Sequence record: PV654397.1 | Source of the DNA: Escherichia phage WPEC5 | Length of the DNA stretch: 64,000 nt | Direction: 5' to 3' (one strand) | Shown here: positions 1,340 to 55,304 of the stretch, piece after piece | Numbering within the stretch: the first letter of the stretch is position 1 | How the letters are laid out: each line of letters begins with the position of its first letter | The notes under the pieces: generated by a model | Told to the model about the DNA's origin: nothing | Seen by the model: the letters and a program-made list of their open reading frames with translations, nothing else | The model's database searches: none | Made by a program: the position numbers and the translations under genes

Positions 1340-1367
1340 ATTATACAGTACTACAAACGTTTGTCAA
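1340..1367 (-). promoter_or_regulatory. sigma70-type promoter
   Basis: minus strand TTGACA-N16-TATAAT (spacer contains cagtactg). Confidence 0.6.
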
Positions 1368-1593
1368 CAGGTTTTTCTTCAATAAGCATAAGATAACTGA
1401 AGACGAATAGTAATACAGATGCCATATCAATAACCGTAAAGCTCACGGGAATGATAATAGACACTAGAACGAGTGCCACGTTTAGCAAGAATACAGTAGT
1501 GATATCCACCAGCTTTCGTTTAGTGGCTACTGCTACTAGTGTAGGGTAGAACATAAACAATAATGCAACTACAAAACTCAATACTAGATACAT
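1351..1593 (-). CDS. hypothetical small membrane protein
   Basis: 80-aa hydrophobic ORF in tiled minus-strand array. Confidence 0.5.
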   Translation of the reverse strand: MYLVLSFVVALLFMFYPTLVAVATKRKLVDITTVFLLNVALVLVSIIIPVSFTVIDMASVLLFVFSYLMLIEEKPVDKRL

Positions 1594-2246
1594 TTCTTTT
1601 TCACCTTAAGAAAATTATAACATAAAACAACCTCAACATCTGGCTCATCATACAAGTACTCAAAGCGTTCTTTACTACGCTTAGTACCGATGTACTCACC
1701 ATTCTTATGCCAACGCCACCCACCACTCTCTGGTTGGTCAGACTTCAGTACTGGATGATAGCACATGACAATTTCTTCTGGACCTTCAATAAGGTTCTTG
1801 TACTTCGTCAAAATCTGTTCAAGCGTATCTGCTACACCATAAGACGAGTGCATAAGATAAGACTCAGGACGTGGACGACCACTTGGTAGAATGTCATCAG
1901 TACTATTAAAGATAGCACGGAAGTCTTCTGACGTGTATAAACTTCCATCTTCATGGATCATTGGATACTCATCTACTACATCATAATCAGTGAAGTGTTC
2001 AATCGCATGTCCTGGTCTGTAACCTGCGAGGATACCTGTATGTTTCGTCTGTACAATAGTCATAACAGATGTACTATTGTTTACATTAGGATCATGAATT
2101 TCAGCCCAAAAAGGATGATGAGGATCAAATTTAGCATTAACTAAAGTACAATCACCAATGTAGTCGAAATTAGTTTCTTTAAAGTTCAAAGAAACACCAC
2201 GCAATGCCCAATCAGGAGAAGTGATGAAATTAAGATTAACTAACAT
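1584..2246 (-). CDS. hypothetical protein
   Basis: 220-aa ORF; no motif confidently recognised. Confidence 0.55.
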   Translation of the reverse strand: MLVNLNFITSPDWALRGVSLNFKETNFDYIGDCTLVNAKFDPHHPFWAEIHDPNVNNSTSVMTIVQTKHTGILAGYRPGHAIEHFTDYDVVDEYPMIHEDGSLYTSEDFRAIFNSTDDILPSGRPRPESYLMHSSYGVADTLEQILTKYKNLIEGPEEIVMCYHPVLKSDQPESGGWRWHKNGEYIGTKRSKERFEYLYDEPDVEVVLCYNFLKVKKKCI

Positions 2247-2280
2247 AGTATCCTCAGTTGCGGTTGTTTTGATACAGTTA

Positions 2281-2484
2281 TTATATCAAAGACGTGTCAA
2301 TTTGTACAACATTTATTGTAACTATTTCGTACATAAAATCAATTGCATTGAACTCTGCATACCACTCTACAATCTCACAAGCAGCATCAACTTGGTTTTT
2401 CGCATTAACACGTCTGGCATAGGTGCTGCTCATTTTGAATCTACCATATTCATAGACATTGTAGACACCATGACACCACCACAT
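2281..2484 (-). CDS. hypothetical protein
   Basis: track ORF 2281..2601 overlaps next gene; start trimmed to ATG immediately after upstream stop (MWWCHG...). Confidence 0.4.
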   Translation of the reverse strand: MWWCHGVYNVYEYGRFKMSSTYARRVNAKNQVDAACEIVEWYAEFNAIDFMYEIVTINVVQIDTSLI

Positions 2485-2485
2485 C

Positions 2486-2704
2486 TTAGTCATTAATGCT
2501 AGGCCATACAGTGAATTGTAAGTCTTGGTATTCAAATTTACCAATATCATTCTTCTTACGGAATGATTCTTCAACCTGAATTTCTGCGTCGTACTGACCA
2601 TCGGCCTTTACTACGTACTTAAAATATTCTACATGTGAAAAACGATACCCTTCTCCGTCTTGCTTGGATACTTGTACTGACCCTTCAACTAGATATAAAT
2701 TCAT
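2486..2704 (-). CDS. hypothetical protein
   Basis: 72-aa ORF in tiled array. Confidence 0.5.
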   Translation of the reverse strand: MNLYLVEGSVQVSKQDGEGYRFSHVEYFKYVVKADGQYDAEIQVEESFRKKNDIGKFEYQDLQFTVWPSIND

Positions 2705-2707
2705 TTG

Positions 2708-2929
2708 TCATTCTCCATCATATTCAGTGAGTATTACACTATGTACTGTTTCAATATAGCGTTGTGTTTTTGGTGTGTTGTACTTAGTTACTTCATCAAA
2801 CAATTTAAATAGTGCATGTGTTGGACTTAATGCACGAACAAATACATCAATCTTCTGTACTTCTTTCTTATAACCACGTACATTATTAAACTCAGATACA
2901 TGCTCATACACAATGTAGTAACGATTCAT
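2708..2929 (-). CDS. hypothetical protein
   Basis: 73-aa ORF in tiled array. Confidence 0.5.
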   Translation of the reverse strand: MNRYYIVYEHVSEFNNVRGYKKEVQKIDVFVRALSPTHALFKLFDEVTKYNTPKTQRYIETVHSVILTEYDGE

Positions 2930-53249: not shown

Positions 53250-54202
53250 TACATGTTCCCCGAACAGATTAGGTCAATCTCACACAGTAATGCACTGAGA
53301 TTCATTTCACGGTCAGACACGGTAGCTTGTTTAACAACAGCGTCACGAATCTTAACCTTAATTTTCATTAGAGTAATTTCATCAGTACTGAACATTTCTG
53401 CATTACGATACAGATAAGAGAAGAATGCATCCATCTCATCATCAGGAATGTTTTGCACGATCTGCTCACGCATTTGACGAATGTTACCAGCTTTTAGTGC
53501 ATCAATAATGGCAGTACGATACCCAGCAGAGTTCTCAATACTGTCTTCAAGCTTTACAAGTTTACCATCGACTACTGAACTTTGCAATACGTTTAGCGTT
53601 TTGCGGAAATCAGGATATGAAGCATTGATGTATTTTTGTACTTGTTCAATACTTTCATCAGTACTTAGATCTACTCCTTCTGCCAATAGTACGTTGTAGA
53701 TGCGTGACATGAATTGTTCCATATCATGCTTCTCAATGGTGATGACCTGAACACGAGAGATAATAGGTTTCTGAATCTTATGTGGTTCATTACTGGTAAG
53801 AATGAAACGAGCATTTTCATGGTAATCTTCCATGACACGTTTCAAGCTACCCTGTGCTTTGTGGTTCATTTGTTCCATTTCTTCCAGAACAAATACACGA
53901 TAACGACCAAAACATGATAGTTTTGCTGCTGCATCAATTTTGTCACGAACAGCATCGATACCTTCATCTGACATATTCAGTGTTGTTACATCACTAGGGT
54001 CAAGGTGTCCGTTAGCTTCCAGACCATTCAGTAGTACTTTGATTGCTGAAGTTTTTCCTGTCCCTGCTGGTCCAAAAAATCCAATATGTGGGATATCACC
54101 AGTACGAATCCATTCTTCCATCTTCTGACGTAGGGCTTCGTTCTTAGATACATAATCTTCCATAGTTTGTGGGCGGTATTTTTCAGTCCATAATGTAGTC
54201 AT
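53249..54202 (-). CDS. clamp loader ATPase subunit (gp44/RFC small-subunit-like)
   Basis: EKYRP box, Walker A GPAGTGKTS, Walker B-like VLEEMEQM, SRV(SRC-like) ISRVQV, and YPDFRKTLN matching recalled T4 gp44 FPDFRKT; 317 aa. Confidence 0.85.
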   Translation of the reverse strand: MTTLWTEKYRPQTMEDYVSKNEALRQKMEEWIRTGDIPHIGFFGPAGTGKTSAIKVLLNGLEANGHLDPSDVTTLNMSDEGIDAVRDKIDAAAKLSCFGRYRVFVLEEMEQMNHKAQGSLKRVMEDYHENARFILTSNEPHKIQKPIISRVQVITIEKHDMEQFMSRIYNVLLAEGVDLSTDESIEQVQKYINASYPDFRKTLNVLQSSVVDGKLVKLEDSIENSAGYRTAIIDALKAGNIRQMREQIVQNIPDDEMDAFFSYLYRNAEMFSTDEITLMKIKVKIRDAVVKQATVSDREMNLSALLCEIDLICSGNM

Positions 54203-54228
54203 GTTTTATTTCCTTGTATATTAGGTGT

Positions 54229-54498
54229 TTATGAAATCCAATCTGCATAATCATACAACAATGCAGTGAATAAGTCTTCTGTCATTTCAAGTTGATTAAA
54301 CAAAAAATTAAATGAGTTTGCTTTGTTCTTCACACCCATTGCTTCGGCCTGGGCTGATACGATAAGTAAGTACTTAAACATATCATGAGAAACTTCATAT
54401 ACGTACTTCGTGTTAGTTCTATCTTCAAACATAAATCGTCCATTTTTAGAAACTAACGTAACGTCAGAAAAACTATATTTTCCATCATCAGTTATCAT
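54229..54498 (-). CDS. hypothetical protein
   Basis: 89-aa ORF in tiled array. Confidence 0.5.
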   Translation of the reverse strand: MITDDGKYSFSDVTLVSKNGRFMFEDRTNTKYVYEVSHDMFKYLLIVSAQAEAMGVKNKANSFNFLFNQLEMTEDLFTALLYDYADWIS

Positions 54499-54554
54499 GT
54501 ATTTTCATCCAAATAAAAAGCCCAGATAATATATCCGAGCTTTAGATTTATGTT

Positions 54555-54881
54555 TTAACGACCAAATGTTTGAGCAGAGATGCGTGGATCAGTGTCAGAT
54601 ACCAAACTTACTGCTGCTGGATAATCAACGAGATTCATTTTAATACCATCAATCTCAATAGTTCTCGACCAACGACCGTGGTCAATTAGAATCCATTGTC
54701 CTTCTTTGATATCGGTAATGTCTTCACCAACAGAATATACTTTAGCCCAACGACAACGAATACCACGTATCTTACCATCATCACTTGTCAGTACAATACC
54801 ACCTGCGGTTTTACGCTCACCATGTTCTAGTTCAGTTACAATAACTTTACCTTTACAAGCTGTCATTACTTTATTGGTCAT
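54555..54881 (-). CDS. GroES-like co-chaperonin (gp31-like)
   Basis: KGKVIVTELEHGERKTAGGIVLT aligns with GroES RVIVKR...KSAGGIVLT; 108 aa. Confidence 0.65.
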   Translation of the reverse strand: MTNKVMTACKGKVIVTELEHGERKTAGGIVLTSDDGKIRGIRCRWAKVYSVGEDITDIKEGQWILIDHGRWSRTIEIDGIKMNLVDYPAAVSLVSDTDPRISAQTFGR

Positions 54882-54884
54882 GAA

Positions 54885-55229
54885 TTACTCCTGATCTTTA
54901 GTTTTTGCTCGGCGTGGAGCTTTCTTCTCTTCAGATACTTCAACTTCTGGTTCTTGTGGTTGAACTTCAAAGCTTTCATCATCCCATACTTCTTCAGTAC
55001 TATATTCAGCACTGTGAAGTTGGTGTTCAGGAATGAAATCAGGAATTTGCATTTCACGTTCTTTTTCTTGGATTAGTTCTTCACGGGTTTTAATGACCGT
55101 ACCACCCGAACCAATCTTATCACCACGAGCATTTAGGTTTGCATTACCTAGTGCTACTTTGTGCTGGTTTTGATACTTTAGCATATCCATATCAATGGTG
55201 GTTCCACGATAAGTTGTGTGTTTTGACAT
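54885..55229 (-). CDS. hypothetical protein
   Basis: 114-aa ORF; promoter-like 55275..55304 upstream. Confidence 0.5.
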   Translation of the reverse strand: MSKHTTYRGTTIDMDMLKYQNQHKVALGNANLNARGDKIGSGGTVIKTREELIQEKEREMQIPDFIPEHQLHSAEYSTEEVWDDESFEVQPQEPEVEVSEEKKAPRRAKTKDQE

Positions 55230-55274
55230 ATAAAAATCCTTTTTCTATGTGAGTGATATAACGCCTCAAACAAC

Positions 55275-55304
55275 ATTATATCACATGTTTTTCTACCATT
55301 TCAA
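55275..55304 (-). promoter_or_regulatory. sigma70-type promoter
   Basis: minus strand TTGAAA-N18-TATAAT; -10 lies in inverted repeat TGATATAA / TTATATCA. Confidence 0.5.

Follow-up and report, generated by a model that had tools for sequence, protein, structure and literature searches.

We analysed a 64,000-nucleotide stretch of Escherichia phage WPEC5 (PV654397.1), referred to here as the window, which carries a set of near-consensus sigma70-type promoters, a few of them joined to hairpins, and is strongly enriched in the palindromic word AGTACT. The window has a G+C content of 35% and a GC skew that is negative throughout. A crude gene model gave 130 open reading frames (ORFs), 122 of which lie on the minus strand, and left 8.4% of the sequence non-coding. 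A 6-kb sample shared 98.7% identity with Escherichia phage Turkey3 and also matched some 60 further jumbo phages of the RaK2-like group, including PBECO4, which aligns to the window with about 84% identity in the aligned parts. According to annotated relatives and Pfam, the genes encode GyrA- and GyrB-like proteins, PolIII-like subunits, a 3'-5' exonuclease, a TelA-like protein, a DNMT3-like C5 DNA methyltransferase, a sigma70-family factor, HNH and PDDEXK_5 endonucleases and four to five tRNAs. The remaining ORFs are mostly small and hypothetical, and an Rfam scan of the window returned tRNAs only. The report on phage CBB describes a layout of many short ORFs as the early region for these phages (PMC5259590). 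The window very probably covers early and middle genes of a jumbo coliphage that is RaK2-like and belongs to the genus Asteriusvirus. The individual features are collected in Table 1.

We found 17 exact matches to the pattern TTGACW-N16-18-TAYAAT, all on the minus strand, against 0.75 expected, and none of 100 shuffles reached that number. An earlier note on this DNA had claimed at least 18 such minus-strand sites; the strand and the excess hold, the exact count does not, and three of the examples it gave are not exact matches, as 5301-5329 carries TATTAT, 18863-18892 carries TATACT and 55275-55304 carries TTGAAA. When at least 11 of the 12 hexamer positions had to match, 35 sites were found on the minus strand and none on the plus strand, compared with 2.5 +/- 1.6 (maximum 7) in block shuffles. 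The minus strand is the coding strand, and all 35 sites are co-oriented with the genes. Just over half of them (18/35) fall within the 8.4% of non-coding sequence (P about 5e-11), and start codons usually follow 18-100 nt downstream.

Further features occur at part of the sites. The spacer is 17 nt long in 23 of the 35, an A stands 5 nt upstream of the -35 hexamer in 28 within an A-rich UP-like tract that spans 5-9 nt upstream, G occupies -13 in 17, and only about a third have a TGn motif. In addition, T is enriched just 3' of the -10 hexamer, giving the context TATAATgtT. When the intergenic sites were compared with PBECO4, the -35 and -10 hexamers were each 97.4% identical, the spacers 86.8% and the flanks 88-92%; the hexamers are thus kept above both spacer and flanks, which points to purifying selection on the hexamers. 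The closest GenBank records, Turkey3 and PBECO4, contain no regulatory features and do not annotate these promoters.

Table 1. Features of the 64-kb window. Matches are given as hexamer positions agreeing with TTGACA/TATAAT out of 12; statements on PBECO4 refer to the aligned sequence of that phage.
Feature	Position	Strand	Remarks
Promoter, 12/12, TTGACA-16-TATAAT	1340-1367	-	tagtactg abuts -10; ORF start 48 nt downstream
Promoter, 11/12, TTGACA-17-TACAAT	4242-4270	-	Gene junction; 69 nt identical in PBECO4
Promoter, 11/12, TTGACA-17-TATTAT	5301-5329	-	AGTACTG fused to -35 as TTGACAGTACTG
Promoter, 12/12	5650-5677	-	CAGTACTG directly abuts TATAAT; ORF start 31 nt downstream; identical in PBECO4
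Match within ORF, 12/12	6299-6327	-	-10 decays to TATACT in PBECO4; function uncertain
Promoter, 11/12, TTGACA-17-TAGAAT	7479-7507	-	Non-coding gap
Promoter, TTGACT-17-TACAAT	10292-10320	-	Intergenic gap; short hairpin at -10
Promoter, 11/12	10613-10641	-	Spacer and flanks diverged in PBECO4, hexamers TTGACA and TATAAT both kept
Promoter, 11/12, TTGACT-18-TATAAT	11978-12007	-	Intergenic
Promoter, 12/12, with TGn	13799-13826	-	Intergenic; hexamers kept in PBECO4
Promoter-like, 11/12, TTGACA-18-TATACT	18863-18892	-	Terminator directly after
Promoter, 11/12	21088-21116	-	About 230 nt upstream of tRNA-Thr
Promoter, 11/12, TGGACA-17-TATAAT	23556-23584	-	tRNA-Ser begins 7 nt after -10; PBECO4 version CAGTACTGA-TATAAT
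Promoter cassette TTGACTAAATAGTTCAGTACTGaTATAAT	24316-24344	-	Proper TGn extended -10
Promoter, second copy of 22-nt core TTGACTAAATAGTTCAGTACTG	24738-24765	-	Same cassette as 24316-24344
Match, 12/12	26443-26471	-	tagtacgt before -10; inside short ORF of crude gene model
Promoter, 12/12, with TGn	26588-26615	-	Intergenic; 35 nt from ORF start
Match within ORF, 12/12	31930-31959	-	Conserved in PBECO4; function uncertain
Promoter, 12/12	33791-33819	-	18 nt to ORF start; short hairpin GGAGTAT/ATACTCC at -10
Promoter, 11/12, TTGACA-17-TACAAT	40251-40279	-	Intergenic
Match within ORF, 11/12	42130-42159	-	Conserved in PBECO4; function uncertain
Two promoter-like matches, 12/12 and 11/12	42937-42965 and 43015-43043	-	Inside tandem duplicated small ORFs coding signal-peptide-like MKKTLTIFVIPTIM; possibly coincidental
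Promoter, 12/12	47980-48008	-	50 nt upstream of 3'-5' exonuclease gene
Promoter, 11/12, TTGACAGTACTG...TAGAAT	49201-49229	-	Upstream of TelA-like gene; TTGACT...TATAAT without GTACTG in PBECO4
Promoter, 11/12, TTGACA-17-TAGAAT	50406-50434	-	Preceded by terminator 50452-50479
Promoter, 11/12, TTGAAA-18-TATAAT, with TGn	55275-55304	-	-10 within 5' arm of hairpin
Long hairpin	5236-5287	-	13 nt downstream of -10 of the 5329 promoter, no overlap; followed only by CCCTTTT; 5' untranslated region structure or weak terminator
Intrinsic terminator, 12-bp stem and T-run	18828-18861	-	Starts 2 nt after -10 of the 18892 site; predicted start site within 5' arm
Hairpin	40217-40270	-	z -4.3; pairs spacer of the 40251-40279 promoter with Shine-Dalgarno sequence and ATG of next gene (start 40220)
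Terminator enclosing promoter	47952-48001	-	z -5.3 to -7.4; followed by T6
Hairpin enclosing -10 of the 49229 promoter	49181-49217	-	No T-run; pairing kept in PBECO4 by compensatory T>C / A>G
Intrinsic terminator, 12-bp stem	50452-50479	-	Joined through its T-run and A-run to the -35 of the 50434 promoter, 18 nt downstream
Hairpin, 5' arm holding -10	55253-55284	-	z -3.1 to -3.3; no T-run, so no terminator on minus strand
Dispersed palindrome H-AGTACT-D	1-64000		165 AGTACT sites, roughly one every 390 bp; CAGTACTG at 40 sites
Phage sigma70-family factor	8077-9045	-	Pfam regions 2 and 3; downstream of consensus promoters
HNH ORFs	20326-20733 and 22523-23065		Adjoin tRNAs
tRNA-Thr	20786-20858	-	
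tRNA-Ser	23460-23549	-	
PDDEXK_5 (I-Ssp6803I-like) endonuclease ORF	25372-25776	-	E = 7.6e-22
C5 cytosine methyltransferase, 286 aa, compact	36609-37469	-	Best solved-structure matches DNMT3A/DNMT3B catalytic domains, E about 1e-23

The co-orientation with genes, the enrichment in gaps, the conserved hexamers, the UP-like A-rich region, the placement directly before a tRNA gene and the published relatives discussed below indicate that these are very probably sigma70-type sites driving early short units, as the earlier note had proposed. We estimate that 20-26 of the 35 are functional promoters. From the anatomy, statistics and conservation of the sites, we infer that host sigma70 RNA polymerase would read about 20-26 near-consensus promoters immediately after infection. 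Short operons containing small early genes, tRNA genes, the gene of the phage sigma factor and a number of replication genes would be transcribed from them, and they carry the A-rich UP-like element, often G at -13 or TGn, and the TATAATgtT context downstream. We assign a probability of roughly 85% to this explanation as a whole, which covers the assignment of the window and the interpretation of the hairpins and of the AGTACT word at promoters given below. Initiation by host E-sigma70 early in infection is suggested by analogy with phages PA5oct and T4.

Some observations weigh against this explanation. A loose scan (at least 9 of 12 positions) showed no excess over shuffles, and it is the near-consensus class alone that stands out. 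Some 10-15 of the 35 sites fall within ORFs, and those at 42937-43043, 6299-6327 and 15591-15620, the last of which is not conserved in PBECO4, may be coincidental or non-functional. The escape from termination proposed below for sites fused to hairpins is, moreover, deduced solely from site geometry.

The encoded sigma70-family factor raises the question of whether it, and not host sigma70, reads the consensus sites, which would then be middle rather than early promoters. The factor has regions 2 and 3, and replication genes, among them those of the exonuclease and the TelA-like protein, follow some of the sites. The sigma gene, however, itself lies downstream of consensus promoters, so its product cannot be needed for the first round of transcription, and Pfam gave no match to region 4, the -35-reading domain, although TTGACA is near-perfect in these sites. 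These two facts argue that first-round transcription must use host sigma70. In addition, relatives are reported to have a separate divergent promoter class (TGAAACG...TATA), attributed to later genes (PMC5259590), and for the related phage PA5oct, growth is sensitive to rifampicin and TTGAC/TATAATA promoters lie at transcription start sites (PMC7318152). Reading by the phage factor is therefore highly unlikely, and we retain host sigma70 as the probable reader.

Near-consensus host-type early promoters are already known in relatives of this phage, and our interpretation is supported by them rather than new. For CBB, 18 RpoD-like promoters with UP-like elements have been reported, concentrated among short early ORFs (PMC5259590); the GenBank record of GAP32 annotates TTGACA(N15-17)TATAAT promoters; and PA5oct has 32 promoters of the TTGAC/TATAATA type at start sites seen by RNA-seq (PMC7318152). 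The window resembles these members of the same phage group in its TTGACA/TATAAT consensus behind an UP-like element and in its one-strand block of short hypothetical ORFs that also encodes a phage sigma factor. It differs in the interleaving with hairpins and in a repeated 22-nt cassette, neither of which is mentioned in the accessible text of the CBB, GAP32 and PA5oct papers. The early promoters of T4, described as 'uber' UP/-35/TGn/-10 promoters (Hinton 2010, PMC2988021), likewise combine near-consensus sigma70 elements with extra conserved positions, and T4 shares the immediate-early use of unmodified host RNA polymerase and the many short units of small, non-essential genes. However, the strict pattern has no exact match in the first 12 kb of T4. 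Phage T5 also has dense, very strong sigma70 promoters (for example P-H207 and P-D/E) among tRNAs, small ORFs and homing endonucleases, and these share an upstream A-tract and, in most of the annotated strong ones, CTGTATAAT at the -10, but their -35 is TTGCT(T/A) and not TTGACA.

The earlier note had also stated that promoters are often fused to strong hairpins, so that one compact module might end one transcript and start the next. Three of the four hairpins that it named fold strongly, at 5236-5329 (z -5.1), 18830-18892 (z -6.8) and 47954-48008 (z -7.4). The fourth, 55275-55304, does not fold alone; its hairpin appears only when the segment is extended to 55240 (z -3.3) and has no T-run. 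Fusion is found at a handful of sites, including three terminator-promoter modules, and 'often' is an overstatement: unusually strong folding (z < -2.5) was seen in only 4 of the 35 promoter regions, compared with 4% of background windows, and of the roughly 11 strong terminators no more than 3 are in contact with a promoter. Coupling to terminators is thus a minority feature and not a general property of the promoter set.

At the three modules, an intrinsic terminator would stop transcripts arriving from upstream, and the transcript that starts at the embedded promoter would escape termination because the 5' arm would be missing from it, wholly or in part. At 47952-48001, the spacer of the promoter forms the 5' arm, with the -10 in the loop and the 3' arm in the first transcribed bases; an RNA begun there would have no 5' arm. 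At four other promoters, the -10 is enclosed by a hairpin without a T-run (49181-49217, 55253-55284, 33786-33804 and 10285-10301). The hairpin at 40217-40270 would mask the ribosome-binding site in read-through RNA and leave it free in RNA initiated at the promoter; translational coupling is the alternative. This arrangement resembles that of T4 genes such as e, in which a hairpin hides the ribosome-binding site in read-through RNA and not in RNA from an internal promoter. We also observed the sequence TGAAACG-N13-TATACT at 47948-47971 on the minus strand, within the 3' arm and T-run of the hairpin upstream of the exonuclease gene. It is like the 'divergent RpoD-like' class of CBB and GAP32. 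This was the one match to that class in the window, a number not above chance, but its placement is suggestive, and it could form a tandem of an early and a middle promoter. The compact natural terminator-promoter modules could be reused in synthetic biology.

Two of the promoters, 24316-24344 and 24738-24765, had been described as almost identical over about 35 nt. They share an identical 22-nt core, TTGACTAAATAGTTCAGTACTG, followed by a 1-nt indel before TATAAT; the similarity extends over about 30 nt and not 35, and the flanks are unrelated. The core occurs twice in the window, four times in the tRNA region of Turkey3 (L001 39411-41568) and twice in PBECO4 (L003 20324-20824). TTGACTAAATAGTTCAGTACTG is thus a repeated promoter cassette. 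Its repetition amid unrelated flanks in a mosaic region of tRNAs and small ORFs suggests that the promoter itself was duplicated or moved together with tRNA and homing-endonuclease modules.

A further claim was that the octamer cagtactg is a spacer element often shared by the promoters. It does lie directly before the -10 at 5650-5677, 24738-24765 and 24316-24344, with tagtactg at 1340-1367, and at two more sites, 5301-5329 and 49201-49229, the motif is fused to the -35. Only 5 of the 40 CAGTACTG copies touch a promoter, however, and the rest are scattered in coding DNA, so the octamer is not a shared promoter-spacer element. What the claim implied is a dedicated operator, in which CAGTACTG in the spacer is bound by a regulator. 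Consistent with this, promoter cores hold AGTACT at 3.5 times its density in the genome as a whole (6 against 1.7 expected, P = 0.008), the word takes only two fixed offsets there, and in PBECO4 the 23584 promoter has independently acquired CAGTACTGA-TATAAT. This density also counts against our own explanation of the octamer, although P weakens to about 0.03 if the cassette, which supplies two of the six cases, is entered a single time. On the other side, 35 of the 40 CAGTACTG and 159 of the 165 AGTACT copies lie outside promoters and are evenly spread through coding DNA, and 29 of the 35 promoters lack the motif. Spacers are no better kept than flanks in PBECO4, which has lost the motif at 49229 and gained it at 23584, and T5 promoters have CTGTATAAT without AGTA in front. 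We consider a dedicated operator quite unlikely. The simplest reading is that AGTACTG is a locally favoured spelling of the CTG context in a genome that favours AGTACT; the octamer would then arise where the CTG-TATAAT context of promoter strength, also found in T5, overlaps with the genome-wide excess of AGTACT. A secondary regulatory role at a few promoters, where an AGTACT reader may occlude strong early promoters, is a possibility that also runs counter to this.

No hexamer in the window is more over-represented than AGTACT, whose 165 copies compare with 33 expected under a second-order Markov model and with 21.5 if base composition is used, and CAGTACTG has 40 copies against about 1-2 expected. 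By reading frame (0/1/2) the hexamer occurs 62, 28 and 55 times, and a further 20 copies lie in non-coding DNA at the same density. Codon choice is bent toward the word: Ser-Thr is spelled AGT-ACT in 62 of 113 cases against 15.8 expected, Tyr is TAC in 27 of 33 cases in the xAG_Txx context against 27% elsewhere, and Val-Leu is GTA-CTx in 55 of 75 cases after an A-ending codon against 20 of 76 otherwise. When synonymous codons were shuffled with proteins and codon usage kept, AGTACT fell to 32 +/- 5 against 144 observed (z = 21), and CAGTACTG to 2.1 against 32 observed. A protein motif or paralogous family of the FSTE type as the source of CAGTACTG was therefore rejected, since the word is found in non-coding DNA as well as in every reading frame, at counts above those of the synonymous shuffles.

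The logo, (C/A)AGTACT(G/A/T), is a compact 8-bp palindrome in which C is disfavoured after the core and G before it is depleted (0.09 against a background of 0.19). We checked +/-30 nt for a larger bipartite motif and found no conservation beyond +/-1 nt. Over distances of 2-5 kb, the sites are spread slightly more evenly than chance would give (variance/mean 0.33), and a search for regular spacing, paired sites and positional bias within genes showed no preferred short distance and no bias. The related words GTAC, AGTAC and AGTACA are also elevated, so that enrichment is graded. In PBECO4, 71% of the sites are intact, compared with 46% of hexamers of the same composition, and the motif columns are 92% identical while the flanks are 86% identical. 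The partial loss of sites, with the motif kept above its flanks, indicates that individual sites turn over while overall density is held.

Other palindromes are avoided in the window. GCGC occurs 0, CGCG 8 and CCGG 17 times, each against 58 expected, many of the palindromic hexamers do not occur at all, and each sample of a related phage is missing 28-32 of the 64. This suggests strong restriction pressure on largely unmodified DNA, and AGTACT is the lone exception in an otherwise palindrome-avoiding genome.

We also found a 5-7-fold excess of AGTACT in sampled regions of related phages, namely the structural-gene region of Turkey3, PBECO4, RaK2, GAP32, CBB and Salmonella phage PHA46. No excess was present in samples of PA5oct (0 against 4 expected), T4 (5 against 4), XacN1 (0 against 3) or T5 (3 against 6.4). 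The excess is thus common to enterobacterial RaK2-like phages of five lineages, and their relatives that infect Pseudomonas and Xanthomonas lack it. A search for related loci with the TerL protein of RaK2 returned RaK2 alone. Across two stretches of E. coli K-12, each of 50 kb, we counted 6 AGTACT against 23 expected (P = 2.5e-5), an approximately 4-fold depletion, and the density in the phage is about 43-fold higher. The word is therefore strongly over-represented independent of frame and codon usage, in a lineage-specific manner that contrasts with host DNA. A literature search for enrichment of AGTACT or CAGTACTG in phages found none, but the search was incomplete, and 'unreported' is provisional. 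A second, non-palindromic word family (TGCAGA, TTGCAG, ATGCAG and TCTGCA) was 4-8-fold over-represented in the GAP32 and PA5oct samples and not in the window.

The first explanation that we considered is that AGTACT is a dispersed tag of phage DNA, a site whose density is selected for a clade-specific binding, modifying or nicking protein that tells self from AGTACT-poor host DNA. The distribution among phages, the contrast with the host, the bending of codon choice for Ser-Thr and Tyr, the conservation of the motif columns, the even density and the compact palindrome all favour it. Several facts do not. No candidate protein was found: among 121 window ORFs, Pfam returned as possible readers only the PDDEXK_5 homing-type endonuclease, HNH domains, the C5-methyltransferase and replication proteins. 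The methyltransferase is the only one in the window and is unlikely to be the reader, being DNMT3-like, and RaK2 DNA has been reported to be CpG-methylated. Nanopore methylomes of Erwinia jumbo phages that are called CBB/RaK2-related list GATC, CCWGG and TGCAT only, not AGTACT; CBB has three methylation enzymes of unknown specificity. In addition, 29% of the sites differ in PBECO4, and graded enrichment of sub-words is unlike a strict type II enzyme site. On balance, we tentatively place this explanation first, at a little less than even odds.

The graded enrichment and the turnover of sites at constant overall density would instead fit molecular drive, in which the excess is a functionless by-product of clade-specific biased mutation, repair or gene conversion, and the clade does encode its own unusual PolIII-like and repair proteins. 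Against this, one-mismatch neighbours of AGTACT are not depleted (483 against 448 expected), and differences in PBECO4 are found at each of the six positions of the motif, with no predominance of C/T transitions; the same two observations leave Vsr-like short-patch repair unsupported. Repair-driven word biases such as that of CCWGG in E. coli are also far smaller than about 7-fold. We regard drive as unlikely, clearly behind a density-selected recognition site. A role at the RNA level ranks lowest of the three, below drive, because a perfect palindrome points to double-stranded DNA.

A host reader was also considered. SlmA, the nucleoid-occlusion factor, binds GTGAGTACTCAC, whose 6-bp core is AGTACT (PMC3020112), and phage AGTACT sites might recruit it and so block cell division during infection. 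The identity of the core with the centre of the SlmA sequence and the restriction of the enrichment to phages of Enterobacterales speak for this possibility. According to the same report, however, SlmA strongly requires G1, T2, A4 and G5 and a purine at position 3 (PMC3020112), and GTRAGYRCTYAC has 0 matches in the window. The GTR flank is present at 10 of 330 half-sites, which is about chance, and the G before AGTACT is depleted, as given above. SlmA recruitment was rejected, and its probability is close to nil.

AGTACT can be compared with known dispersed words. It is like Chi, DNA uptake sequences and KOPS in standing far above expectation, in occurring in all frames at a cost in codon choice, in being kept as a density and in being lineage-specific. 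Those words are asymmetric and orientation-dependent, belong to cellular genomes and have known readers in RecBCD, the uptake machinery and FtsK, whereas AGTACT is a perfect palindrome in a viral genome. It is also the palindrome of the ScaI site. Restriction sites are normally avoided by phages; AGTACT differs in being 7-fold enriched, together with its sub-words, and no cognate enzyme was found in the window.

Several other features of the window were observed. The C5-methyltransferase gene (36609-37469) fits the CpG methylation reported for RaK2 DNA, and the gene itself holds two CAGTACTG copies. The PDDEXK_5 and HNH ORFs are probably homing endonucleases that shape a variable tRNA region; directly downstream of the PDDEXK_5 ORF, a weak tRNA-like Rfam match (25287-25365, 32.6 bits) has no ARAGORN call. 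The minus-strand segment 42813-43050 consists of tandem duplicated mini-ORFs with a signal-peptide-like N-terminus, MKKTLTIFVIPTIMLLL... A gap of about 660 bp without a convincing ORF (7415-8076) lies between the terminator 8047-8072, which follows the sigma-factor gene, and the promoter 7479-7507; Rfam gave no match in the gap, PBECO4 has a similar unannotated gap, and it may hold regulatory sequence or a non-coding RNA. Copies of the late-promoter motif of T4 type, TATAAATA, are fewer in the window than expected (2 against 9.6). One of its copies (58519-58526, minus strand) sits 12 nt upstream of the start of an 807-aa ORF (56084-58507), which may be a late gene embedded in the early region.

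In conclusion, the promoters matter mainly for annotation, as they define early transcription units of an Asteriusvirus and leave knowledge of phage transcription unchanged. The part that could matter is the excess of AGTACT, whose octamer the earlier note had misattributed to the promoters. It is possible, though rather less than an even chance, that enterobacterial RaK2-like jumbo phages carry an undescribed genome-wide tag, (C/A)AGTACT(G/A/T), by which a phage factor would distinguish, organise, protect or process phage DNA, with the copies adjacent to -10 and -35 hexamers coupling its reader to the shut-off of early promoters. At about 1 per 400 bp, there would be around 900 tag copies per genome. 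A genome purged of nearly half of the 6-bp palindromes in which AGTACT is 7-fold over-represented against codon preference, in phages of at least five host genera and with depletion in the host, implies a sequence-reading activity.

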